Source of the DNA: a virus
Taxonomy: Duplodnaviria > Heunggongvirae > Uroviricota > Caudoviricetes
DNA: 40,212 nucleotides
Reading direction: 5' to 3' (one strand)
IMG/VR virus record: IMGVR_UViG_2541047498_000018
A model generated the notes under the pieces. That model did no database searches and had not been told where the DNA came from. It was given only the letters and a program-made list of their open reading frames with translations. Below, piece after piece: positions 1-40,212 of the stretch; positions within the stretch are counted from its first letter, which is position 1, and every line of letters begins with the position of its first letter. The translations under genes and the position numbers were made by a program.

Positions 1-1
1 T

Positions 2-376
2 ATTGAAGGGGCTTACGAGGTGGTGGGCGTTTTTGACCGGATAGAGGAGAAGCGTGATGCCATGCAGTCGCTGGTCCTGCCGCAACCGGCACGCCAGGCG
101 CTGGCACAGGCGGCACTGACTTACCGTTATGGTGACGAACATCAGCCCGTCACCACCGCCGACATTCTGACGCCGCGACGCCGGGAGGATTACGGTAAGG
201 ACCTGTGGAGCGCATATCAGACCATCCAGGAGAATATGCTGAAAGGCGGGATTTCCGGTCGCAGTGCAAAAGGAAAACGTATCCATACCCGGGCCATTCA
301 CAGCATTGATACCGACATTAAGCTCAATCGCGCATTGTGGGTGATGGCAGAAACGATGCTGGAGAGCCTGCGCTGA
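2..376 (+). CDS. Partial CDS (3' end) of a flanking genomic-island gene; hypothetical protein, possibly DUF932-like
   Basis: Reading frame is open from the window start to the stop at 374-376 (track ORF 20..376 is its in-window part). It sits outside the prophage end, on the same strand as the antirestriction gene on the other flank. Confidence 0.5.
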   Translation: MEGAYEVVGVFDRIEEKRDAMQSLVLPQPARQALAQAALTYRYGDEHQPVTTADILTPRRREDYGKDLWSAYQTIQENMLKGGISGRSAKGKRIHTRAIHSIDTDIKLNRALWVMAETMLESLR

Positions 377-490
377 TGCCGTTTCCCTGAGTGAGGGAAT
401 CATTCAGCTTTCGTTCCCGAAAAACACACATTTATTTGTTATTTAAGGAGTTATCTCATGAAAACCGTTTCTCAGAATATATAGCGCGGC

Positions 491-562
491 GATTTTTTTG
501 ATACCGATTTGCATTTCATTTGATACCGCTGAAAAACGCCGATACGCAACTTATTTGATACT
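491..562. repeat. Right-end (attR-side) transposase-binding repeat array, three closely spaced TTTGATAC(C/T) sites
   Basis: TTGATACC at 498-505, TCATTTGATACC at 516-527, TTATTTGATACT at 551-562. The same motif occurs inverted at the other prophage end. Tight clustering resembles Mu R1-R3. Confidence 0.6.
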
Positions 563-607
563 AAATCGGCGCTTTTCTTTTGAGTTTTAGAATGAGTTTT
601 TAAGCGC

Positions 608-1345
608 TCATTCACTCTCTTTCAAACCAGTTTTAACTGTTTGTGGTTTTGGGTAAGGCTGGACTTTGAATAGCTTTGTGTTGAGGCGTTTTCTGGCCCT
701 CTTGTTCAGAAACCGGATGTAACGAAACTGTCGGAACTTATGAACACTGGCTCTGTCAATATTAGCCCTCAGATGTTCACCTCGTTGTCCGCCTCGTTTA
801 ATGGCATTCCTGCAAATCTCGTGATACCACTCGCCATCAAGTTCATAGAATATTGATTCATGGCTGCCTACATAATCAAAATTGCTTGCCTGATACACGA
901 CACCAAGACAGCCACAACGCTCATCTGCAAACGACTGAACCCACTGTACCTGCGGATAAAGCTGCCTGATTAGCTTGAGCGCGTAACTGATTGCCCTTGA
1001 TTCGGAGTTTCTCGGCATACAGTCATGCAGCCATAGCCGGTTAAGCTCCATATATTCTCGGTTCTGCGTACCCGTTACGACGCGTGCACCACTGTTTGGG
1101 TTAAGGGCGTAACCCCATTGCATTACGCCAACAAGTTCCCGTTCTGAAAATATGCCCAGATGAAGGTAGGAGTTATTTACGAAACGGTGGCTGTAATGTT
1201 TATTGACGATGACCAGTCTGGCCAGCCAGCAACTTATTGTCTCAACCCGCAACTCACGGGAGCCATAACCAACGATATTGTCGTTATAGCGAATAAGTTC
1301 AGGCGTGCTGATGATTCGGGATGTGACTTGCTTTCTGTTCCCCAC
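608..1345 (-). CDS. mom: DNA modification protein Mom (adenine modification, antirestriction)
   Basis: 245-aa ORF as the last gene before the prophage end. Its 5' end overlaps the 3' end of the upstream Com-like zinc-finger gene, as in Mu. True start may be an internal codon. Confidence 0.8.
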
Positions 1346-1499
1346 GACAGGATTTCCTTGTGTATGTGGGGTGCTCTGTGGCGCTCGGAGATGTGATTTG
1401 ATTGAGGGTTTTACAGCGCGGACATTTTACTTCCAGATAACTGAAACTGGCCCGTGCCAGTAGCTTATTGCAGTGTCGGCACCGTATGTTTCGATACAT
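1299..1499 (-). CDS. com: Com, zinc-finger translational activator of mom
   Basis: Translation [14 protein letters not shown]...EVKCPRCK has the C4 zinc-finger pattern of Mu Com. ATG at 1499 is preceded by AGGAGG 9 nt upstream on the minus strand. The track ORF starts further upstream at a TTG at 1544. Confidence 0.85.
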
Positions 1500-1546
1500 G
1501 ACCGCATAACCTCCTGCTTTGTTGTTGATGCCTTTCTCATGCAATC

Positions 1547-1685
1547 GATCGACAAAAACGATCGATTCGATTTGTTTAATTGATACAACAAATAGATTGA
1601 AAAGTCATCAACAATGATTCAGGGAGGTGATTATTTACTTAAAGAAAACGAAGAGTTAGGTGGTGAAAACGATCATAAAATGATC
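1547..1685 (-). promoter_or_regulatory. Upstream regulatory region of com-mom with a cluster of four GATC (Dam) sites
   Basis: GATC at 1547-1550, 1560-1563, 1671-1674 and 1682-1685, within about 190 bp upstream of com. Mu Pmom is known to be controlled by Dam methylation of upstream GATC sites (OxyR binding) and by C protein. Confidence 0.5.
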
Positions 1686-1771
1686 ATTTTATTGACTTTT
1701 TATACAGTGAAGGTAGGATCACGCGTATATGTAGTATGTTTCAAATCAACAGGATACTACATAAAAGTGAA

Positions 1772-1799
1772 ACCCAGCATAGCTGGAACTATGCTGGGT
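1772..1799 (-). terminator. Candidate rho-independent terminator for minus-strand transcription leaving the cargo module
   Basis: Perfect 11-bp inverted repeat ACCCAGCATAG / CTATGCTGGGT with a 6-nt loop. On the minus strand it is followed by TTCACTTTTAT. Confidence 0.4.
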
Positions 1800-2116
1800 C
1801 AATCTGTAAAAACTTGCATCAATGCTTTACTTCGAGCTCGTGGCGTATCCTATGATATTCCCCGGTCTCCTGTAAAGCAGAGATGCATAAAAAGGAGATC
1901 TTTATCATGGATGAAAGAGCCTGTTTGCCCTGCCTGTAAGACTCCCTTACAGCTCATCTATCGCCGTTCTCGATCTCAAAATGGCAAGACATACAAACCC
2001 AAAAATGCTTCCTGTTTCAGGATGCTGATATGTCCTGCCTGTTCTCCCAGGAGGGAAAATACACAAAACGTGCATTAACAAACTCACCCGGCAGGGAAAC
2101 CTGCCGGTCGGTATTG

Positions 2117-2362
2117 TTACATCATAGTACCGTCAGTTCCGGGCTGAACCGGCTCTGGTTGCTCTACGGGTTGAGGATCATTTTCCGTGCTGTTTTCAGC
2201 CGGAGAACGGCCAACCATTCGGGCCAGCACTTCATCAACATATGCGTCGATTTGTGCCTCAAAATCCTTGCGAACCTGCGCCTTCAGCACGCGGTTCACT
2301 TCTTCAGAATAAAGTGCCTGTTTGACAAGCTCTTCAGTAACCGTGCCTTTAATCTCTGGCAT
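2117..2362 (-). CDS. Hypothetical protein (81 aa, acidic, Pro/Glu-rich C-terminus), cargo module
   Basis: ORF co-oriented with and downstream of the esterase gene. No family recognised. Confidence 0.4.
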   Translation of the reverse strand: MPEIKGTVTEELVKQALYSEEVNRVLKAQVRKDFEAQIDAYVDEVLARMVGRSPAENSTENDPQPVEQPEPVQPGTDGTMM

Positions 2363-2397
2363 GAATATTCTCCTTTTGCAGGTATATTGCCCCGTTA

Positions 2398-2580
2398 TCA
2401 GAGCGGGGTCGGGTCGTTTGGGGATGACGGTGCCTGTGCTGTTTTACTGAGTTTTTCAGCTGCCGCATCATCAATTTTACGGCGAATATAATTTCTGATG
2501 ACCTTATAACCACCGCTCACCAGATATAACGCACTGACCACAGCGCAGAAATAAAGCAGCATTGTATGAACGAATGTCAT
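2398..2580 (-). CDS. Hypothetical small membrane protein (60 aa), cargo module
   Basis: N-terminal hydrophobic segment LLYFCAVVSALYLVSGGY followed by a basic stretch. Co-oriented within the cargo module. Confidence 0.4.
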   Translation of the reverse strand: MTFVHTMLLYFCAVVSALYLVSGGYKVIRNYIRRKIDDAAAEKLSKTAQAPSSPNDPTPL

Positions 2581-2726
2581 ATAACCTTACCTTTGATATT
2601 GACTACATAATTCGTTATCGGGTAAAAACATCGAAGCGACTGATAACCACTCCTTCGGGAGTATTTTTATTTTCCTTTATGGGTTAGGTAGCTCCCGCCA
2701 GCCATATCATGACCGGCGGGATTTTT

Positions 2727-4766
2727 TTATTCTGTTACCGCTTTTTTCACTTCCACCACAATGCTGTCAATCAGCACCGGGTAAGTTGCATTTTTTGTGA
2801 TATCCGTTACGCGGAGTTTGTCCACCGGGAAAGTTCCTACTGGTGACTGCGTCAGGGTAAACGCGGCACCATCCTGACCATCAATAACCGGAATAACCTG
2901 AAGGCTGTTATTTCCTGCAAAACGGAAGGCCAGCGTATGCCATTCATTATCAAATGCACCAAAGGTTCCCAGTTTCTGGTTATTTGTTGCCACTTTTGCA
3001 TTGTGGTACATCACATTCAGGTCTTTTGCGTCTGTCTGGATGTAGAACGATGCCAGCAGATTATTCCCTGCATCCCCTGTCAGGGTGACACCCTGCGGCA
3101 GAGAGGAAACCGGCCAGTAAAGCCCCATGACATACTGGTTTGCCACCAGGTCGCCAGGTACTTTAAAACGACAACTGATTAAACCACCATTTTTCAGCAG
3201 TTCAGCACCAGTACCGGCATCATGATCCAGATACCAAGATGATTTACCTGTTTCCTTGGTCAGTTTCATTGCCTTACCACCTGTGCCTCCTGCATCACTG
3301 ATAATTTCAGCTTTACCGCCAGCCGGCTCCCAGCCCTGGGCTTTCAGATTTCCTTCTGACTCACTGACACGATAAGACAGCAGTGTTGTGGTTACTGCTT
3401 CAGTTTCTGAAGGTGACGGCACTGGTGCTTCAGTTTCAGAAGATGGAACATCGGCTTTTACTGTGGTTCGCCCCGCATGAGTCAGAACTGCCGTGGCCAG
3501 ACGGTCGGAAATAATCCCACGACGTGCCCATGAACTGAAATGGCTGGCCCGGTCCGCAGATGTCCAGGTGGCGGCACTGTTACGCCACGTTGAGCCGTAA
3601 TAACCAATGGATTCAATATCCGGGTCTTCTGCCGGATTGTTGGTGGGTACATTCGCGTCATTTTCATCTGTCATTAATGGAACGAAATGAATGTTTTTAT
3701 CTGTTTTGTTTTTGTAGCCGCCATAGATTGCCTGGTATGCCGGTTCATTTTTCTGTTTCCAGAAATACGTGGTATCGCCACAAATCCACGGAACGCCAGC
3801 AGCACTGCCACCGGTACACTGTTCCGCCTGTTCAGCCAGGTCTGCGCGGAATTTTTCCACCATCGCCAGAAACAGCGCGGAATGCTCCGTCGGCTTCGCA
3901 TCAATATCAAACTCGCCCTGCATCCACACCACAGCAAGCAGGCGGTTTTTCGGGTTCTTCGCCAGTGCCGCTTTTGTCCGGCTGATTAAGTCCTTATACA
4001 GCGGCTTATCCACACCCCAGCGGGCTGAGTCCTCTGAAGCACCCGTGCTGTCACTGTACGTGCCGTCAGCACCCGCCGTGAATGCAGAACCACCACGGCA
4101 GCAGGGAACCAGCAGAATCCCCGCATCTGCCGGAATAAACGGCAGCAGTTTTTTGGCAATGTGAAGCCCCTGACCCACGGTGCCATATTGCCCTTTAGCC
4201 ACATCCGCTTTCGGGTGATTTTTTCCACTCATATCCTGCACATCATGCAGACAGTGGTCGGCCAGAATGATGTCGTTATACTGACAGGCTTTACCTCCCG
4301 GCGTGACTGTACTGCGACGGGCTAACTGCATAATACGCGGTTCGGGGCGGTCATATGTCTCCGGCAGTGGCAGACCTTCACCGTAAGCCATACCGTTTGA
4401 CTGACCAGCAAGAACCACCACGTAATACCAGGAAGGGGAGCTGGAAGCAGTTTCATTTCCTGACGGACGGGTATGTGTTTCAGCATTATCCCAGTCTGAC
4501 GGTTCAGCAGTACCGGCAACATCAGCACTTAACGGAATGACCGCACCAATACCCGCTCCGGTAATTTCCACACTCGGATCACCGGATACTGGCCTTACCC
4601 ACAGGCAATCCCGTGTATTAAAACTGATGAGACAGTCAGCAAATGTCATTCCTCCTTTTGTTTCGGCCGGAGGAAAGGGAGCCTCAAGAAATGCCGCTGT
4701 ACCACCGGAAACTTTAACAGTAAAGTTTCCGGGCATTGATGATAGTTGAACCCATTTGGACGTCAT
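2727..4766 (-). CDS. SASA/SGNH-family carbohydrate O-acetylesterase (NanS-p-like sialate O-acetylesterase) with C-terminal lectin-like domain
   Basis: 679-aa ORF with VVVLAGQSNGMAYGEG (the GQSN nucleophile motif of SASA esterases), a Ser/Thr/Pro/Glu-rich linker (SETEAPVPSPSETEA) and a roughly 250-aa C-terminal domain. This three-part layout matches prophage NanS-p esterases as recalled. Confidence 0.75.
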   Translation of the reverse strand: MTSKWVQLSSMPGNFTVKVSGGTAAFLEAPFPPAETKGGMTFADCLISFNTRDCLWVRPVSGDPSVEITGAGIGAVIPLSADVAGTAEPSDWDNAETHTRPSGNETASSSPSWYYVVVLAGQSNGMAYGEGLPLPETYDRPEPRIMQLARRSTVTPGGKACQYNDIILADHCLHDVQDMSGKNHPKADVAKGQYGTVGQGLHIAKKLLPFIPADAGILLVPCCRGGSAFTAGADGTYSDSTGASEDSARWGVDKPLYKDLISRTKAALAKNPKNRLLAVVWMQGEFDIDAKPTEHSALFLAMVEKFRADLAEQAEQCTGGSAAGVPWICGDTTYFWKQKNEPAYQAIYGGYKNKTDKNIHFVPLMTDENDANVPTNNPAEDPDIESIGYYGSTWRNSAATWTSADRASHFSSWARRGIISDRLATAVLTHAGRTTVKADVPSSETEAPVPSPSETEAVTTTLLSYRVSESEGNLKAQGWEPAGGKAEIISDAGGTGGKAMKLTKETGKSSWYLDHDAGTGAELLKNGGLISCRFKVPGDLVANQYVMGLYWPVSSLPQGVTLTGDAGNNLLASFYIQTDAKDLNVMYHNAKVATNNQKLGTFGAFDNEWHTLAFRFAGNNSLQVIPVIDGQDGAAFTLTQSPVGTFPVDKLRVTDITKNATYPVLIDSIVVEVKKAVTE

Positions 4767-4865
4767 AATAATCAGCCTGTTCCTGAATAAACTGAATTAT
4801 CATATCCACAGACCGATAAACGCCATTTTGCGTTAATTCAGTAAAGGCCCAACAAAGGGAGCGTC

Positions 4866-5426
4866 TTATTTTTCCGAAACGCTCGCAGGATAATAACGAT
4901 AAAGGGTTGAAAGGCCGATATCAAAAATAAGTGCCACCTGTCTTCGACTGACACCCCCGGCCAGTAAACGCCCGACCTGCTCGTATTGTTCCTGCGTGAG
5001 ACGACGGGGTCTGCCGCCGGTTCGTCCCCTTTCACGGGCAGCTGCAAGACCAGCCCGTGTCCGTTCGACAATTAATTCACGCTCCATTTCTGCCAGCGCA
5101 CCCATTATGTGAAAAAAGAAGCGCCCCATGGGGGTTGACGTATCAATGTTGTCAGTAAGACTACGAAAATTTATCCCCTGTTGCTGTAATTCATCTGTCA
5201 GCGCAACAAGGTGGCGCATACTGCGCCCCAGCCTGTCCAGTTTCCAGACCATCAGTGTGTCACCGGGTTTTAGTTTCTTCAGTGCCCGCTTCAGTCCCGG
5301 CCGCTGTGTCGTTTTACCACTCATTTTATCTTCAAAAATCTGCTCACATCCTGCACATTCCAGCGCATTTCTTTGTAAACCTGTGTTCTGGTCATTTGTT
5401 GATACGCGTATATAGCCAATCAGCAT
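4866..5426 (-). CDS. gin: Gin serine DNA invertase (Hin/Gin/Cin/Pin resolvase-invertase family)
   Basis: 186 aa starting MLIGYIRVSTNDQ (catalytic Ser) with the conserved DRLGRS and GRFFFH...ALAEMERE motifs and a C-terminal HTH. It lies next to a gix-like site and the invertible segment. Confidence 0.95.
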   Translation of the reverse strand: MLIGYIRVSTNDQNTGLQRNALECAGCEQIFEDKMSGKTTQRPGLKRALKKLKPGDTLMVWKLDRLGRSMRHLVALTDELQQQGINFRSLTDNIDTSTPMGRFFFHIMGALAEMERELIVERTRAGLAAARERGRTGGRPRRLTQEQYEQVGRLLAGGVSRRQVALIFDIGLSTLYRYYPASVSEK

Positions 5427-5480
5427 GTATTTACCTTCCTTAAAAAGAGGTGGAAAGGCCTTTTAAAGCAGATATACGGC

Positions 5481-5506
5481 ATCCCTGAAACCTCGGTTTA
5501 CGGGAT
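5481..5506. other. gix-like recombination site (left border of invertible segment)
   Basis: 26-bp imperfect palindrome ATCCCTGAAACC-TC-GGTTTACGGGAT, 55 bp upstream of the gin start. It resembles the Mu gix/hix family sequence as recalled. Confidence 0.7.
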
Positions 5507-5851
5507 ACTGTAAACAGGGCCGCGAATGCCCTGCCATCGAACGGAGCGGCTGTTGCAGCGAATAAACTCGCCACTCCAAGAAATATTAATGGTGTCCCAT
5601 TTGACGGAACGCAGGATATAAATATTACATCGGGGATGACGCAGTCTGTGGCTGACTCACGTTATGTTCAAAGCATTCGAAGAGGTTCAAGGTCAACGAT
5701 TGGAATGCAATATAATATTTTTGAGGTTCCTGACGGATGCGTACTTACAGGGCTTGATGTCGCTGGTGATGGTAATGCAACGGTAACCGCATATTATCGA
5801 CCTGTTCAGTTTCTGATAGATGGTTCGTGGAAAACAGCTTCCAGCGCATAA
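5501..5851 (+). CDS. Start-less alternative tail-fibre variable C-terminal cassette (S'v-like), expressed only after inversion
   Basis: Open frame directly inside the left gix site on the plus strand. It is homologous to the C-terminal part of S and has no start codon of its own upstream (TGA at 5486 in frame). Confidence 0.7.
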   Translation, partial: RDTVNRAANALPSNGAAVAANKLATPRNINGVPFDGTQDINITSGMTQSVADSRYVQSIRRGSRSTIGMQYNIFEVPDGCVLTGLDVAGDGNATVTAYYRPVQFLIDGSWKTASSA

Positions 5852-5930
5852 AAGTGCAGTAGTTCAAAAAACAGATTATCTGAATAAATATATGATGATT
5901 TTGTCTTTTCAACAAAAACAAGGTGAAATA

Positions 5931-6452
5931 ATGGAGCTTATTAACGTAAAACGATATTACCCGGAACACAAACCCTATGGTGAGGATGTTCAGTATTTCC
6001 AGAGTGAGGACGGAAGGGATTTTTATGAATCTATCCCGCTTTTCACAAAGAAATACAAACTCTGTATTTCGCCTGTAACGGGTATTATCTGCTCTGTTGC
6101 TGAAGATGTCTCTGCTTTATATCCGGCAGGTTTTACTGTTGTTGAAGTGGACGAACTGCCGGAAGGTGTGAATATTGACGGTAACTGGCAGTTTTCTGAT
6201 GGCCTGATATCAAAGGTGCCGGTAAACTGGAAGACGGTTGCTGAAAAGCGCCGCTCATCGCTGCTCCAGGAAGCCAACGAAACTGTGGATGACTGGAAAA
6301 CGGAATTAAAACTGGACATGATTAGCGATGAAAATAAATTACAGCTGACGCGCTGGATGGCGTATATCCGACAGCTTAAAGAAATGCACTTTAATGATAT
6401 TGCCAGTGAGGGGCATTACCAGGCGATTCCCTGGCCGGAAAAACCGGAATAA
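5931..6452 (+). CDS. Tail fibre assembly protein (U'/Tfa family)
   Basis: ATG at 5931 preceded by AAGGTGA. Contains SEDGRDFY near the N-terminus and a W.AY...L...I.WPE.P C-terminus typical of Tfa/U proteins. Co-oriented with the S'v cassette. Confidence 0.8.
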   Translation: MELINVKRYYPEHKPYGEDVQYFQSEDGRDFYESIPLFTKKYKLCISPVTGIICSVAEDVSALYPAGFTVVEVDELPEGVNIDGNWQFSDGLISKVPVNWKTVAEKRRSSLLQEANETVDDWKTELKLDMISDENKLQLTRWMAYIRQLKEMHFNDIASEGHYQAIPWPEKPE

Positions 6453-6486
6453 TTCAGAGGGTGCATTCAGCACCCTTTTCTGTGGT

Positions 6487-7398
6487 TTACACTGAACTTA
6501 CCGTTCTCCAGGCATTATTAATATAAATCTGAACCGGGCGATAATAGACCCCACCGATATTGTCCGCAGACCGGGAGCCGGTTTCCTGCACGTTAATTCC
6601 GGAAAGCATACAACCGGAAGGTGCGCTGTAATTCCATGACATTTCATTGCCTCCGGGTGAATGATAGCTCTGTGCTCCAAGCTGAACATTCTGTACATAC
6701 CGGCCATCTGCGGTTGACTGCGTCATTCCTGACGTGATGTTGATATCCAGCGTTCCGTCAAAAGGAACACCATTAATATTTCTTGGGGTGGCGAGTCTGT
6801 TTGCTGCCACGGCGGTTCCACCCGATGGCAGGGCATCAGCAGCCTTATTTACCGTTTCCCGTAAACCAACGTTATCGATAAAAGCGCCTTTATCCGGAAT
6901 GTCTGCGCCGTTCTGCTCCCTGCGCAGGTAACGGTTATCACCTTCGCTTTTGCTGTAAACATCCAGATTATTACGGGCGGTTCCCGCATTCTCCAGGTCG
7001 GCAAGGTTCTGATCCTTCGCCAGAGCATTAACGTCACCGGGACCAAGACTGTTTTTTGTGGCAAGCGCCCCAAGACCAAGATAACCACGGGCAAGACGCT
7101 GGGCTTCCGCACCGGCATCAGCAATTTCTTTCAGGTTGTTTTTCCGGGAAAAGGCATTCGCAGCGATAATGGCTTTAATGGACAGCGTAAGCTGGTTTAA
7201 CTGCGCCTTATCCGGCTGAATACTGGCTTCAGCCAGAATATTCAGCAGTTCGGCCTGGAGAATATTCAGCCAGTCCTGACCAATCCAGCTGATACCTTTT
7301 TGTCCGTCACCTTCGGTAAACCAGGTGGTGGTATTACTCTGCGCCGGTGCCAGCGCAGGCATATTCGCCACGCCGGAATTATTATCAACATGAAACAT
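6487..7398 (-). CDS. S: Tail fibre protein S (constant N-terminal part plus currently fused variable C-terminal part Sv)
   Basis: Likely start is the ATG at 7398 (MFHVDNN...), which overlaps the stop of the upstream gene as TAATG. The gene crosses the right gix site, and its C-terminal roughly 125 aa lie inside the invertible segment. Confidence 0.8.
   Translation of the reverse strand: MFHVDNNSGVANMPALAPAQSNTTTWFTEGDGQKGISWIGQDWLNILQAELLNILAEASIQPDKAQLNQLTLSIKAIIAANAFSRKNNLKEIADAGAEAQRLARGYLGLGALATKNSLGPGDVNALAKDQNLADLENAGTARNNLDVYSKSEGDNRYLRREQNGADIPDKGAFIDNVGLRETVNKAADALPSGGTAVAANRLATPRNINGVPFDGTLDINITSGMTQSTADGRYVQNVQLGAQSYHSPGGNEMSWNYSAPSGCMLSGINVQETGSRSADNIGGVYYRPVQIYINNAWRTVSSV
6856..6881. 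other. gix-like recombination site (right border of invertible segment, inside S)
   Basis: TTCCCGTAAACCAACGTTATCGATAA, about 21 of 26 positions matching the Mu gix sequence as recalled, in inverted orientation to the left site. It encodes IDNVGLRE within S. Confidence 0.65.
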
Positions 7399-7958
7399 TA
7401 AATAGTCTCCTCTTCGTGACTGTTTGCATATACGTAAATAAACGTCTGCCATGCAGGCTTATAACGGTTCAGAATACATTCCAGCGCACCGCCTTCATAA
7501 ATACGCAGCGGCGTGAGAATATCATCCAGCACATTCATATTCCGGTAGCCGGTTTCACTGTTAATCGTGACAATACTGACCCACTGTGAATCCGGTGATG
7601 GCTGAATATCTATTTCATAACCAAACTCTGCCGCAAACCGGATATAAAATTCACGGTTAAGAGAGGGTTTCATCCGGTATTTATTCCCGGCATAACGCTG
7701 ACGCTCCTGAATGGTTGCGCCGGTCATATCACATTCCGGTAACCCCAGATAACGCTCCCAGTCTTCCAGCAGCAGACGGGATGAATCAGGAAAACGTTCT
7801 GCCAGCATCTGGTTACCGGTCCAGGAAACACGCTCCGTGGAATGACTGAGGCCCAGGCACAAAGCCGCAAGAACGGATGACGGCCGCTTATCCCATGCCA
7901 GCCCGTCAGGCAGCAACTGCAACAGGGCACGCTGATGCGGGGTCAGGGTTACAGCCAT
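7398..7958 (-). CDS. Baseplate/tail protein (Mu gp48-like, DUF2313 family)
   Basis: 186-aa ORF immediately upstream of S and downstream of the baseplate J-like gene, at the Mu gp48 position and size. Confidence 0.6.
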   Translation of the reverse strand: MAVTLTPHQRALLQLLPDGLAWDKRPSSVLAALCLGLSHSTERVSWTGNQMLAERFPDSSRLLLEDWERYLGLPECDMTGATIQERQRYAGNKYRMKPSLNREFYIRFAAEFGYEIDIQPSPDSQWVSIVTINSETGYRNMNVLDDILTPLRIYEGGALECILNRYKPAWQTFIYVYANSHEEETI

Positions 7959-9034
7959 GTGATTTCCCCCACGGTCAGCAACTCTGTATCTCCGGCCATC
8001 ACGGACTTCAGCGGGCTGCGAACTTCAAAATCCTCCAGTCCTTTCACCCCTGCAACAGCCCGCCAGAATGATGAAGGCAATACAAGTCCACCCGGCCGCG
8101 ATTCGTTATAAAGCAGGTCCGTTAATGCCTGTTTTACGGCAGCCTGATTTTCCGGCGTTTTGGGTACAATCCTGATCTCAAACGCCACCGGCTTATTGGT
8201 CAGCTTAAACACGCTGATTGTCGGCCCAAGTGGCTGACCAACGGGCTGGCCCGTCGCCGGATCATCATGACTGCGGATATAATCCGCCACCCGCTTCACA
8301 TCACCTTCTCCGGGGAAAATGTCAGGGTTATTATCCTGAACAAAAGTCACACCAACACTACCCGCCTCAGGCCATTCAGGCTTACACCATGCCCGCGTCA
8401 CGCCCGGTACTTCCCGTGCCCAGCGTTCAAAATCATACTGTGTTCCCCCTGATGGCGGGTTCTGTACCCGGAATACCAGCCTGGACAGCAACTCCGGCAC
8501 CGTTTCCACATCCGCACCACCGGTGAGTCCCGTGCCGGTGACCGTGGCTGTCTGGTTGATGCCCGCCTGTGGCGTGATAAAGGACAGGCGGGTTCCGGTC
8601 GGGGTATTTCCAGCGCGCCCCGCACTTTCCGCCTCCACATTAACATTCAGTGTTCCGGCTTTTCCGGTCGCAGAGCCGGTGATGCGGTACACAACACCAT
8701 CGCTTCGCTGAAGGAGTACGCCTTCCGTGATCCCTGCATCCGTGGTCAGCATCAGTTGTACCGGTCCGTCAGCGCGGGAAGCCGGTTTACGGATGACACC
8801 CCAGAATGCGCAGTGTTTCAGGAGTTCGGCTTCATCAGCTTCTGTCGGAATTATCTGCCGGGAGATCCAGGCCAGATGTTCATGCTCCTGTGCTGACAGA
8901 CCCGCCAGTGCATACGCAATGGCATTCAGGGTGGTTTCATTCACGCCCGGCTGCGAACCGGGCAGGCGCTGGCTGATATCCTGTTGTGTCTGTGTGATCA
9001 GTTGCGCCAGTGGTAAGGGCTGATAAGGCATCAT
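7949..9034 (-). CDS. Baseplate J-like protein (Mu gp47-like)
   Basis: 361-aa ORF in the baseplate block, with the size and position of Mu gp47 / P2 gpJ-family proteins. Confidence 0.7.
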   Translation of the reverse strand: MMPYQPLPLAQLITQTQQDISQRLPGSQPGVNETTLNAIAYALAGLSAQEHEHLAWISRQIIPTEADEAELLKHCAFWGVIRKPASRADGPVQLMLTTDAGITEGVLLQRSDGVVYRITGSATGKAGTLNVNVEAESAGRAGNTPTGTRLSFITPQAGINQTATVTGTGLTGGADVETVPELLSRLVFRVQNPPSGGTQYDFERWAREVPGVTRAWCKPEWPEAGSVGVTFVQDNNPDIFPGEGDVKRVADYIRSHDDPATGQPVGQPLGPTISVFKLTNKPVAFEIRIVPKTPENQAAVKQALTDLLYNESRPGGLVLPSSFWRAVAGVKGLEDFEVRSPLKSVMAGDTELLTVGEITWL

Positions 9035-39747: not shown

Positions 39748-40212
39748 GGTTACAAATACCCCCACAATTTATTCAGCTACAACACCAGAGAATAATCCGC
39801 CTCAGTTGGTTGCCAGCCTCGTCCCTGATGAACAGCGCATCAGCTTCTGGCCGCAGCATTTTGGCCTCATTCCACAGTGGGTCACCCTGGAGCCCCGTGT
39901 CTTCGGCTGGATGGACCGTCTGTGCGAAGACTACTGCGGTGGTATCTGGAATCTGTACACCCTGAACAACGGCGGGGCATTTATGGCCCCCGAACCGGAT
40001 GATGATGATGACGAAACATGGGTACTGTTCAATGCCATGAACGGTAACCGCGCTGAAATGAGCCCGGAAGCCGCCGGTATTGCCGCCTGTCTGATGACGT
40101 ACAGCCATCATGCCTGTCGTACGGAGAATTATGCCATGACGGTCCATTATTACCGGTTGCGGGATTACGCCCTGCAGCATCCGGAAGGCAGCGCCATTAT
40201 GCGCATCATTGA
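39737..40212 (+). CDS. Partial CDS: antirestriction protein (KlcA/ArdB family, YfjX/YafX-like); 3' end beyond the window
   Basis: Plus-strand frame is open from the ATG at 39737 to the window end. Translation ...WPQHFGLIPQWVTLEPRVFGWMDRLCEDYCGGIWNLYTLNNGGAFMAPEPDDDDDETWVLFNAMNGNRAEMSPEAAGIAACLMTYSHHACRTENYAMTVHYYRLRDYALQHPEGSAIMRII matches CP4-type island antirestriction proteins as recalled. The in-frame ATG lies inside the terminal repeat, so the native start is uncertain. Confidence 0.7.
   Translation, partial: MIHLVTNTPTIYSATTPENNPPQLVASLVPDEQRISFWPQHFGLIPQWVTLEPRVFGWMDRLCEDYCGGIWNLYTLNNGGAFMAPEPDDDDDETWVLFNAMNGNRAEMSPEAAGIAACLMTYSHHACRTENYAMTVHYYRLRDYALQHPEGSAIMRII

Follow-up and report, generated by a model that had tools for sequence, protein, structure and literature searches.

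The segment at 2117–4865 of the window (the whole stretch of viral DNA analysed, 40,212 nt) is read here, with a probability of about 0.8, as an accessory module (a 'moron') in an intact Mu-like prophage of the Sp18 type, encoding a NanS-p-family sialate O-acetylesterase together with two partners, DUF1378 (a membrane helix) and DUF826. The esterase, released at lysis or carried on virions, would deacetylate mucin sialic acids. [quoted passage not shown] A literature search found no paper linking nanS-p with Mu-like phages or naming ECs4993-4996.

The window contains a complete Mu-like prophage of ~39.3 kb, compared with 36.7 kb for Mu. Its right end is at ~480 (matches in other genomes begin at 470–480) and the flanks differ among genomes, the prophage being inserted at varied chromosomal sites. 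Mom, Com and Resolvase are identified by Pfam, and relatives carry Mu Gp45/46/48 and baseplate genes. The host prophage is of an already known kind, the Sp18 type of O157 Sakai, found in pathogenic E. coli, and is intact. On the minus strand (to which gene coordinates refer unless stated), gin, encoding the G-segment DNA invertase (4866–5426; Pfam Resolvase, E 1.4e-51, and HTH_7; PHROG DNA invertase), borders the module on its upstream side and precedes a 99-bp spacer (4767–4865), the 679-aa esterase orf (2727–4766), a 60-aa orf (DUF1378), an 81-aa orf (DUF826) and a hairpin. Past the hairpin lie a plus-strand orf, ECs_4996, and then the downstream neighbour com-mom (608–1544), consisting of com (1299–1499/1544; Pfam Zn_ribbon_Com) and mom (608–1345; Pfam Mom). 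gin and com are separated by 3,366 bp holding four orfs, versus 94 bp in Mu, 82 bp in SfMu and D108 and 58 bp in vB_YpM_3; the Muvirus arrangement, in which gin is immediately followed by com-mom, is therefore not found here. The right end is otherwise like that of Mu, D108 and SfMu (tail fibre/G segment, gin, com, mom, right end; Mom 79.5% identical), but in those phages, as in vB_YpM_3, nothing of the module lies between gin and com. The original prediction, made from the sequence alone, had proposed ~3.3 kb of intervening cargo relative to classical Mu; this is borne out, and all the features that it described are present where it had placed them. It had listed the esterase and two small orfs correctly, but had missed the fourth, opposite-strand orf, ECs_4996, which lies beyond the coordinates given.

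By sequence, the 679-aa protein belongs to the NanS-p family of SGNH/SASA O-acetylesterases, as had been proposed. The Pfam SASA profile (PF03629; E 6.5e-12, above the gathering score) matches aa 116–312, the motif VVVLAGQSNGMAYGEG lies at aa 116–131, and E. coli NanS (PDB 3PT5) matches aa 104–428 (E 1.9e-118). The catalytic domain is accordingly placed at aa 113–433 (3468–4430), with S123 in the block I motif GQSN and H409 in DRASHF. In a residue-by-residue comparison with 3PT5 these two residues align with the Ser and His of NanS, and both are invariant in an alignment of the window protein and two lambdoid alleles; the GQSN block is invariant in 14/14 sequences of a larger alignment. Their partners in NanS are presumably Ser19 and His301, residues reportedly described by Rangarajan et al. 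2011. Because the full-length AF2 model is poor (mean pLDDT 54, catalytic domain not resolved), catalytic geometry is taken only from the alignment to 3PT5. A Ser/Thr/Pro-rich interdomain linker, VKADVPSSETEAPVPSPSETEAVTTT (aa 434–460; 3387–3467), where a common variant of 669 aa has a 10-aa indel (this indel separates P0044 from the window protein), leads to a lectin-like jelly-roll C-terminal domain (aa 461–679 plus the stop codon; 2727–3386), matched by DUF6645 (PF20350; E 2.4e-69, aa 524–642) and by the NanS-p C-terminal domain structure 6YP6 (E 1e-111, aa 459–674), in agreement with the linker and lectin-like domain first described. Like other NanS-p proteins, the product is prophage-encoded, longer than NanS and without a signal peptide, the N-terminus MTSKWVQLSSMPGNFTVKV having no hydrophobic core as read from the sequence. 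None of the four orfs between gin and com matched PADLOC defence-system models or NCBIfam.

The lambdoid NanS-p domain layout suggested for this protein holds for the catalytic and C-terminal domains, but at the N-terminus DUF1737 is replaced by an unrelated domain. DUF1737 (PF08410), named at the outset as a profile to look for, gave no Pfam match at E ≤ 0.1 in the window protein, while a lambdoid allele used as a positive control matched at E 1.6e-11. Predicted fold, profile and identity comparison place in its stead a lineage-specific domain (aa 1–80; 4527–4766), which is only 12–14% identical to lambdoid alleles and is predicted to be all-beta, whereas DUF1737 folds as a helix plus three strands (bioRxiv 10.64898/2026.04.10.717836). 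It is under purifying selection, with dN/dS of 0.09–0.2 across all three esterase domains, and is seen only in Mu-like prophage copies from E. coli, Shigella and Salmonella (9/9 Mu-like contexts). It is followed by a Ser/Thr/Pro/Asp-rich linker, predicted to be disordered (aa 81–112; 4431–4526; pLDDT below 50). This linker ends at a recurrent recombination breakpoint.

Relatives of the N-terminal domain outside this setting were not found by any of several routes. A word-indexed protein search and an exhaustive HMMER search of 1.84 billion representatives together yielded nothing beyond same-architecture fragments and P0035, a low-complexity repeat protein regarded as spurious. The HMMER search gave no stand-alone homologues, which does not prove rarity because clustering at 50% probably hides full-length Mu-type proteins behind lambdoid representatives. 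Scans of viral contigs gave only near-identical Sp18-type copies, and none for the Salmonella variant; a scan of species-representative genomes with two N-terminal patterns gave no relatives; tblastn of the Salmonella domain against 50,697 phage records gave only two Mu-like inserts in Stx phages; and no paralogue was found elsewhere in the prophage. A fold search with the N-terminal model retrieved only generic cupin-like barrels and unnamed ~90-aa phage proteins, and is not diagnostic.

From aa 113 through DUF1378, the module is swapped between otherwise identical prophages and is common to P2-like and lambdoid prophages. A sliding-window comparison with strain 03_3503, blastn segments and domain-wise identities delimit an exchangeable cassette (esterase aa 113 to end plus DUF1378; 2377–4428), which diverges between Sp18-type prophages that are otherwise 97–100% identical. 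[quoted passage not shown] Homology to lambdoid and P2-like alleles begins at 4428 (aa 113), from where the closest known relative of the esterase core is a P2-like prophage allele (93% nucleotide and aa identity). Across aa 113–679, aa identity to lambdoid NanS-p alleles is 74–82%; for the catalytic domain it is 82% to lambdoid alleles and about 95% to the P2-like allele. Taken as a unit, the cassette downstream of the N-terminal domain is 77–81% identical to lambdoid alleles. The earlier label 'lambdoid-type' is thus too narrow: lambdoid relatives do exist, but the closest core relative is P2-like. The horizontal acquisition proposed with it fares better: lambdoid Stx phages have nanS-p, DUF1378 and DUF826 in the same order, immediately upstream of holin S, which gives good support to sharing with other kinds of phage through horizontal exchange. 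We infer that phage-type specificity resides in the N-terminal domain and that the esterase-lectin unit is an interchangeable payload.

The module is not peculiar to one prophage but is fixed throughout the Sp18-type lineage. A comparison of Mu-like prophages finds it in every Sp18-type variant examined and not in Mu, D108 or SfMu; Shigella sonnei and a distantly related Salmonella Mu-like prophage also have it, and the arrangement occurs in no fewer than 165 of the 5,426 complete E. coli genomes. Some variants lack gin, the esterase gene there lying directly after the tail-fibre/G-segment cluster. In one public contig, L028, the 5′ half of a lambdoid nanS-p is fused to the 3′ half of the Sp18 gene, and paralogous copies therefore do recombine or mis-assemble. 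This chimera is the one point in favour of regarding the module as a functionless recent one-off insertion, decaying remnant or assembly artefact. That reading is hardly credible, and is effectively refuted by conservation under purifying selection in all three domains: many complete genomes carry the esterase orf uninterrupted and 100% conserved, at insertion sites that differ, the catalytic residues are preserved, and the module is found in diverged alleles and in other genera.

Homology strongly favours sialate as the substrate, and de-O-acetylation of Neu5,9Ac2 and mucin sialic acids would be expected from the 82–95% identity of the catalytic domain to family members. Published NanS-p enzymes have esterase activity on Neu5,9Ac2 and mucin and confer a growth advantage (PMC8065619, PMC10462455). 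On the preferred reading, the esterase would be made in the cytoplasm and, having no signal peptide, would presumably depend on cell lysis after prophage induction, or on attachment to the virion, to reach its substrate. The C-terminal domain may dock the enzyme on mucin glycans, with the SGNH domain removing 7/8/9-O-acetyl groups from sialic acids; the deacetylated sugars could then be used by sialidases and the Nan pathway, to the benefit of the surviving lysogen population. Sp18 is reported as not mitomycin-inducible (PMC2669165), and the amount of esterase released may therefore be small. An unlikely alternative target is O-acetylated bacterial surface polysaccharide (O-antigen, capsule, colanic acid), with the enzyme aiding adsorption or altering the lysogen surface. 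SGNH esterases are known in phage tail proteins, the esterase has a weak PHROG 'tail protein' match (E 4.4e-5), tail-fibre genes adjoin its gene and the idea has been raised for NanS-p in the literature (PMC8065619). However, the catalytic domain is close to those of NanS and lambdoid NanS-p, both with demonstrated sialate specificity, the same core is carried by phages with quite different receptors, and without a signal peptide the esterase cannot modify the lysogen's own surface from within.

More plausible, though still tentative, is that the esterase is a structural, virion-displayed enzyme, with the N-terminal beta domain anchoring it to the Mu-type capsid or tail-fibre/baseplate and flexible linkers letting the esterase-lectin unit work on mucus around the particle. 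In phi24B, the NanS-p protein gp84 decorates capsid hexons via DUF1737 (bioRxiv 10.64898/2026.04.10.717836), and the window protein has the same build: a small N-terminal domain, a ~30-aa disordered linker, then the enzyme. The type of N-terminal domain follows the type of phage, beta in all Mu-like contexts and DUF1737 in lambdoid and P2-like prophages, with the payload freely exchanged at the linker, and the esterase gene adjoins the tail-fibre/G-segment cluster. Against this, the N-terminal domain, unlike DUF1737, has no stand-alone homologues in the HMMER search, and the same pattern could arise if its coding region were simply flanking homology kept during cassette exchange. DUF1737 also occurs with two capsid types (lambdoid and P2-like), and domain type is thus not strictly tied to one capsid. 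NanS-p proteins may, on a generalisation of this analysis that we hold as possible but not probable, be modular virion-display enzymes combining a swappable esterase-lectin payload, a flexible linker and a phage-type-specific N-terminal anchor, the ~80-aa beta domain being an unrecognised Mu-type anchor (capsid or tail-fibre/baseplate) and the counterpart of DUF1737. The sharp N-terminal swap at the linker, taken with the capsid anchoring by DUF1737 described in the phi24B preprint, makes a Mu-type virion anchor a testable prediction for the new domain; if correct, Sp18-type Mu phages would be mucus-interacting particles.

The esterase shares with lambdoid NanS-p (933W L0105/z1466; phi24B vb_24B_21 = gp84) the SASA/SGNH domain (82% aa identity), a Ser/Thr/Pro linker, the DUF6645 domain (79–82%), the lack of a signal peptide and the downstream DUF1378 and DUF826 genes, but has the ~80-aa all-beta N-terminal domain and a longer linker instead of DUF1737. 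Gene position also differs: lambdoid nanS-p is a late-operon gene that comes after Q/stx and before the lysis genes, upstream of holin S, while here, near the right end of a transposable prophage of Mu type, the gene follows gin and precedes com-mom, and regulation must therefore differ. The P2-like prophage esterase (E. coli JNEC-KY174; contig ACAQQI010000074) is likewise similar in its core (93% nt/aa from aa 113) and is followed by a DUF1378 gene; it differs in having a divergent DUF1737 N-terminus and no DUF826 gene, and is located between the lysis cassette (lysozyme/LysC) and tail genes. Chromosomal NanS (YjhS; 3PT5) has a homologous catalytic domain in which the GQSN serine and C-terminal His are kept, but is a single-domain protein of ~326 aa belonging to the nan regulon, without the N-terminal or lectin-like extension. 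NanS carries an export signal.

NanS-p presumably allows Shiga-toxin-producing E. coli to use the O-acetylated sialic acids of mucin as food and has so far been discussed as a trait of lambdoid (Stx) phages, yet the same payload circulates in lambdoid, P2-like and Mu-like prophages. Its presence in three prophage types indicates a broadly selected, mobile trait, and means that some nanS-p copies escape per-genome counts that rely on DUF1737 or on a lambdoid context. DUF1378, a tiny membrane protein, is constantly paired with the esterase in these three types, which points to a functional partner not yet studied.

The two small orfs after the esterase, noted from the outset, are both identified by Pfam. 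DUF1378 (60 aa; 2398–2580; E 1.2e-38), with one hydrophobic N-terminal helix, is 54% identical (aa) to its homologue in phage 1720a-02 and is found with the esterase in prophages of all three kinds (lambdoid, P2-like, Mu-like); DUF826 (81 aa; 2117–2362; E 2.8e-15) is 47% identical to the homologue in the same phage. The hairpin predicted after DUF826 is confirmed (2076–2119; inner stem 2088–2107; region dG −25.5 kcal/mol, z −4.1) and, lying between the convergent DUF826 gene and the plus-strand ECs_4996, is probably a bidirectional terminator. ECs_4996 (its name in Sakai; here orf154; 1614–2078, plus strand; low G+C, 0.39) encodes a protein with a CxxC...CxxC C-terminus that matches PHROG 26524 (unknown function). 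Variable or frameshifted in relatives, it is part of the intervening DNA and not of the esterase module. No Rfam matches were found in window positions 1–8000. In the gin-esterase spacer no terminator-like site and no convincing sigma-70 promoter was found, sites in a promoter consensus scan being no more frequent than expected by chance; the module may be transcribed by read-through from gin or from a late promoter. Within it, TTTACTGAATTAACGCAAAATG (4824–4845), unique in the window, is largely conserved among E. coli and Shigella Mu-type alleles in an alignment of the upstream region. Directly after the esterase stop codon there is a 13-bp GC-rich hairpin (2693–2721; dG −23.2, z −5.4), with a T7 run on the plus strand and no U-run on the minus strand, and a third hairpin is located at 1771–1800.

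A complete Mu-like prophage, carried on the minus strand, spans ~480-39,789 of the window. Alignments to other genomes begin at 470-480 independently of the flanking gene, and GAATA or AGAAT is the candidate 5-bp target duplication. The hexamer AGAATA is found on both flanks (474-479 and 39,789-39,794), which fits such a duplication, and repeated TTTGATACC-like motifs at the prophage ends (470-480; 39,758-39,794) are probably transposase binding sites. At ~39.3 kb the element is longer than Mu (36.7 kb), so a Mu-sized headful can hold less host DNA. A 154-aa ORF (orf154; 1614..2078, plus strand) shares its name, ECs_4996, with an ORF of E. coli O157:H7 Sakai, which identifies the prophage as of the type of Sp18, described as an intact Mu-like phage (PMC2669165).

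On the minus strand, gin (5426..4866), next to the tail-fibre/G-segment region, is followed by a 99-bp spacer, the 679-aa esterase ORF (4766..2727), a 60-aa DUF1378 ORF (2580..2398) and an 81-aa DUF826 ORF (2362..2117), with a stable hairpin after it (region dG -25.5 kcal/mol, z -4.1), then, beyond orf154, com (1499/1544..1299) and mom (1345..608). All elements of the original prediction (679-aa ORF, SASA motif, linker, C-terminal domain, small ORFs, hairpin) are present. Gin and com are 3,366 bp apart here versus 94 bp in Mu, 82 bp in SfMu and D108 and 58 bp in Yersinia phage vB_YpM_3, bearing out the claim that the module (esterase, DUF1378 and DUF826 genes) is an insertion relative to Mu. 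Another strong hairpin lies directly 3′ of the esterase stop codon (2693-2721, minus strand; dG -23.2). Upstream of com, two GATCG sites lie within a palindrome (AATCGATCGACAAAAACGATCGATT; 1543-1567) reminiscent of the Dam-methylation/OxyR region in the mom promoter of Mu, although its spacing to com differs.

The module was present in every Sp18-type variant examined: O121 WL1277, mouse strain M1, O91:H21 FWSEC0008, 03_3503, JKHS016, a Shigella sonnei contig and the Mu-like phage found within two Stx phages. In Salmonella enterica, a Mu-like prophage carries a highly diverged copy in the same place after gin (N-terminal domain 29% identity). This com-mom is present in 226 of 5,426 complete E. 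coli genomes, and ≥80% of window 1-8000 in at least 165. The module is therefore an old acquisition that has become fixed in the lineage, and it is not private to this prophage.

The SASA/SGNH assignment was confirmed by matches to Pfam SASA (aa 116-312, E 6.5e-12) and to the solved structure of E. coli NanS (3PT5; aa 104-428, E 1.9e-118). S123 (GQSN) and H409 (DRASHF) align with the corresponding NanS residues, which we take to be the catalytic residues Ser19 and His301, in agreement with the tag offset of the 3PT5 chain numbering. A Ser/Thr/Pro-rich linker (aa 434-460) leads to a C-terminal domain that is NanS-p-like, as predicted, matching DUF6645 (aa 524-642, E 2.4e-69) and the NanS-p C-terminal domain 6YP6 (aa 459-674, E 1e-111). 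The lambdoid NanS-p layout that had been proposed holds for these three parts and fails at the N-terminus, where DUF1737 is replaced: aa 1-112 have no DUF1737 match, while a lambdoid control allele in the same scan matches at 1.6e-11, and identity to lambdoid N-termini is 12-14%. A domain-only AlphaFold model predicts a six-stranded all-beta domain (aa 6-78, pLDDT ~80-88) followed by a disordered linker, in contrast to the helix plus three strands of DUF1737 (2026 preprint, bioRxiv 10.64898/2026.04.10.717836); the same strand pattern reappears in the full-length model, which is otherwise poor. The domain is genuinely coding: dN/dS is 0.10 versus a close allele and dN is 0.28-0.30 with saturated dS versus the M1-type allele. 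Among 1.84 billion representatives, where 50% clustering may hide full-length members behind lambdoid ones, exhaustive HMMER searching returned only same-architecture fragments from E. coli, Shigella and Salmonella. All recovered contexts of this domain are Mu-like.

In lambdoid Stx phages the same three genes occur in identical order just upstream of holin S, and phage 1720a-02 encodes DUF1378 and DUF826 proteins of the same sizes as in the window (60 and 81 aa). Both kinds of ORF have been noted previously between nanS-p and S (PMC10462455). DNA homology to lambdoid nanS-p is limited to window 2738-4428 (77-81%), i.e. aa 113 to the protein end, and identity to the lambdoid proteins is only 54% for the DUF1378 product and 47% for the DUF826 product. 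Compared with FWSEC0008 and 03_3503, prophage flanks are 97-100% and the N-terminal domain 98-99% identical, but the catalytic domain only 67% and the C-terminal domain 37-38%; sliding-window comparison places the breakpoints at ~2376 (DUF1378/DUF826 junction) and ~4400-4430 (around aa 113, the start of the catalytic domain). The part behind the N-terminal domain is an exchangeable cassette. The closest relative of the window core is in a P2-like E. coli prophage rather than a lambdoid one (93% identity, nucleotide and protein). Homology begins exactly at 4428, and this copy, located between lysis genes (lysozyme, LysC) and tail genes (L029 8001-9660; L032 6302-8506), starts with a divergent DUF1737 and is again followed by a 50-aa DUF1378 gene. 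A second P2-like allele has a catalytic domain ~95% identical to that of the window with a different linker and C-terminal domain, making the second linker a junction too. In contig AASMET010000054 (L028 1-4700), a hybrid nanS-p has a lambdoid 5′ part (DUF1737, stx-downstream flank) and an Sp18-type 3′ part and downstream region (DUF1378, DUF826, orf154, com, mom, then host flagellar genes), and is either an assembly chimera or the product of inter-prophage recombination via the shared gene.

The NanS-p protein gp84 of phi24B is reported to decorate the capsid via a DUF1737 hexamer (bioRxiv 10.64898/2026.04.10.717836), and the esterase shares its plan with a different N-terminal domain. By analogy, the N-terminal beta domain may be a phage-specific anchor bearing an interchangeable enzyme, a tentative reading to which we give a probability of roughly 0.3. 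That N-terminal domain type follows phage type while the payload shuffles at the linker is what such an anchor would be expected to show; the occurrence of DUF1737 with two different capsid types argues against it. Simple cassette replacement by recombination inside conserved coding sequence is expected to leave an equal pattern, with the N-terminal domain constant and the payload exchanged.

NanS-p enzymes show O-acetylesterase activity on Neu5,9Ac2 and mucin and enable lysogen growth on O-acetylated sialic acid; carbohydrate binding is presumed for their C-terminal jelly-roll domain, and lambdoid nanS-p is expressed together with late genes (PMC8065619, PMC10462455). The esterase would share this chemistry, because its catalytic domain is 82-95% identical to other NanS-p alleles with catalytic residues conserved, and would reach its substrate through lysis or on particles, since the sequence has no signal peptide. 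Neither a terminator-like site nor a convincing sigma-70 promoter was found in the gin-esterase interval. This spacer is largely conserved among E. coli and Shigella alleles, including gin-less variants with a gin 3′ remnant, only a few positions being common to the Salmonella copy also; no second copy of a conserved 22-nt spacer stretch was found in the prophage.

The enzyme family is known (the esterase is already named ‘sialate O-acetylesterase’ in databases), as are the prophage and each of the Pfam domains. In the accessible literature we did not find the Mu-like and P2-like contexts, the substitution of a distinct conserved domain for DUF1737, precise cassette boundaries or the constant DUF1378 partnership.

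DUF1378 proteins (50-60 aa, one N-terminal hydrophobic helix; homologues in L004, L032 and L030) are encoded 3′ of the esterase gene in lambdoid, P2-like and Mu-like prophages, within the swapped cassette, and the P2-like case lacks DUF826, which points to the esterase and DUF1378 as the minimal conserved pair. Orf154 has low G+C (0.39) and a CxxC...CxxC C-terminus. It matches no Pfam or PADLOC family, its sole hit being PHROG 26524 (unknown function). It is frameshifted in FWSEC0008 and 03_3503, and M1-type prophages have an 86-97-aa ORF at this position. A perfect 13-bp inverted repeat within orf154 (1771-1800), corresponding to a third hairpin on the minus strand (dG -21.5, followed by a U-run) in its antisense, casts some doubt on the annotated reading frame.

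Among other alleles, the 669-aa P0044, very common (~1000 contigs), lacks 10 aa of the second linker (window 3387-3467), with SSETEAVTTT versus SSETEAPVPSPSETEAVTTT in the window protein, as slippage between SETEA repeats would produce; P0110 (730 aa) has an internal duplication within the catalytic domain. No gin is annotated in the Sp18-type relatives of E. coli M1 (L021 11446-11749) or Shigella sonnei (L030 6748-7000), where, judging from alignment, only a remnant of its 3′ end is left and the esterase gene lies directly 3′ of the tail-fibre assembly gene. A 95%-identical Mu-like phage with the module is annotated inside Stx2c- and Stx1a-converting prophages (LC727881, LC727895), and these composite elements may hold lambdoid nanS-p and the Mu-type copy together.
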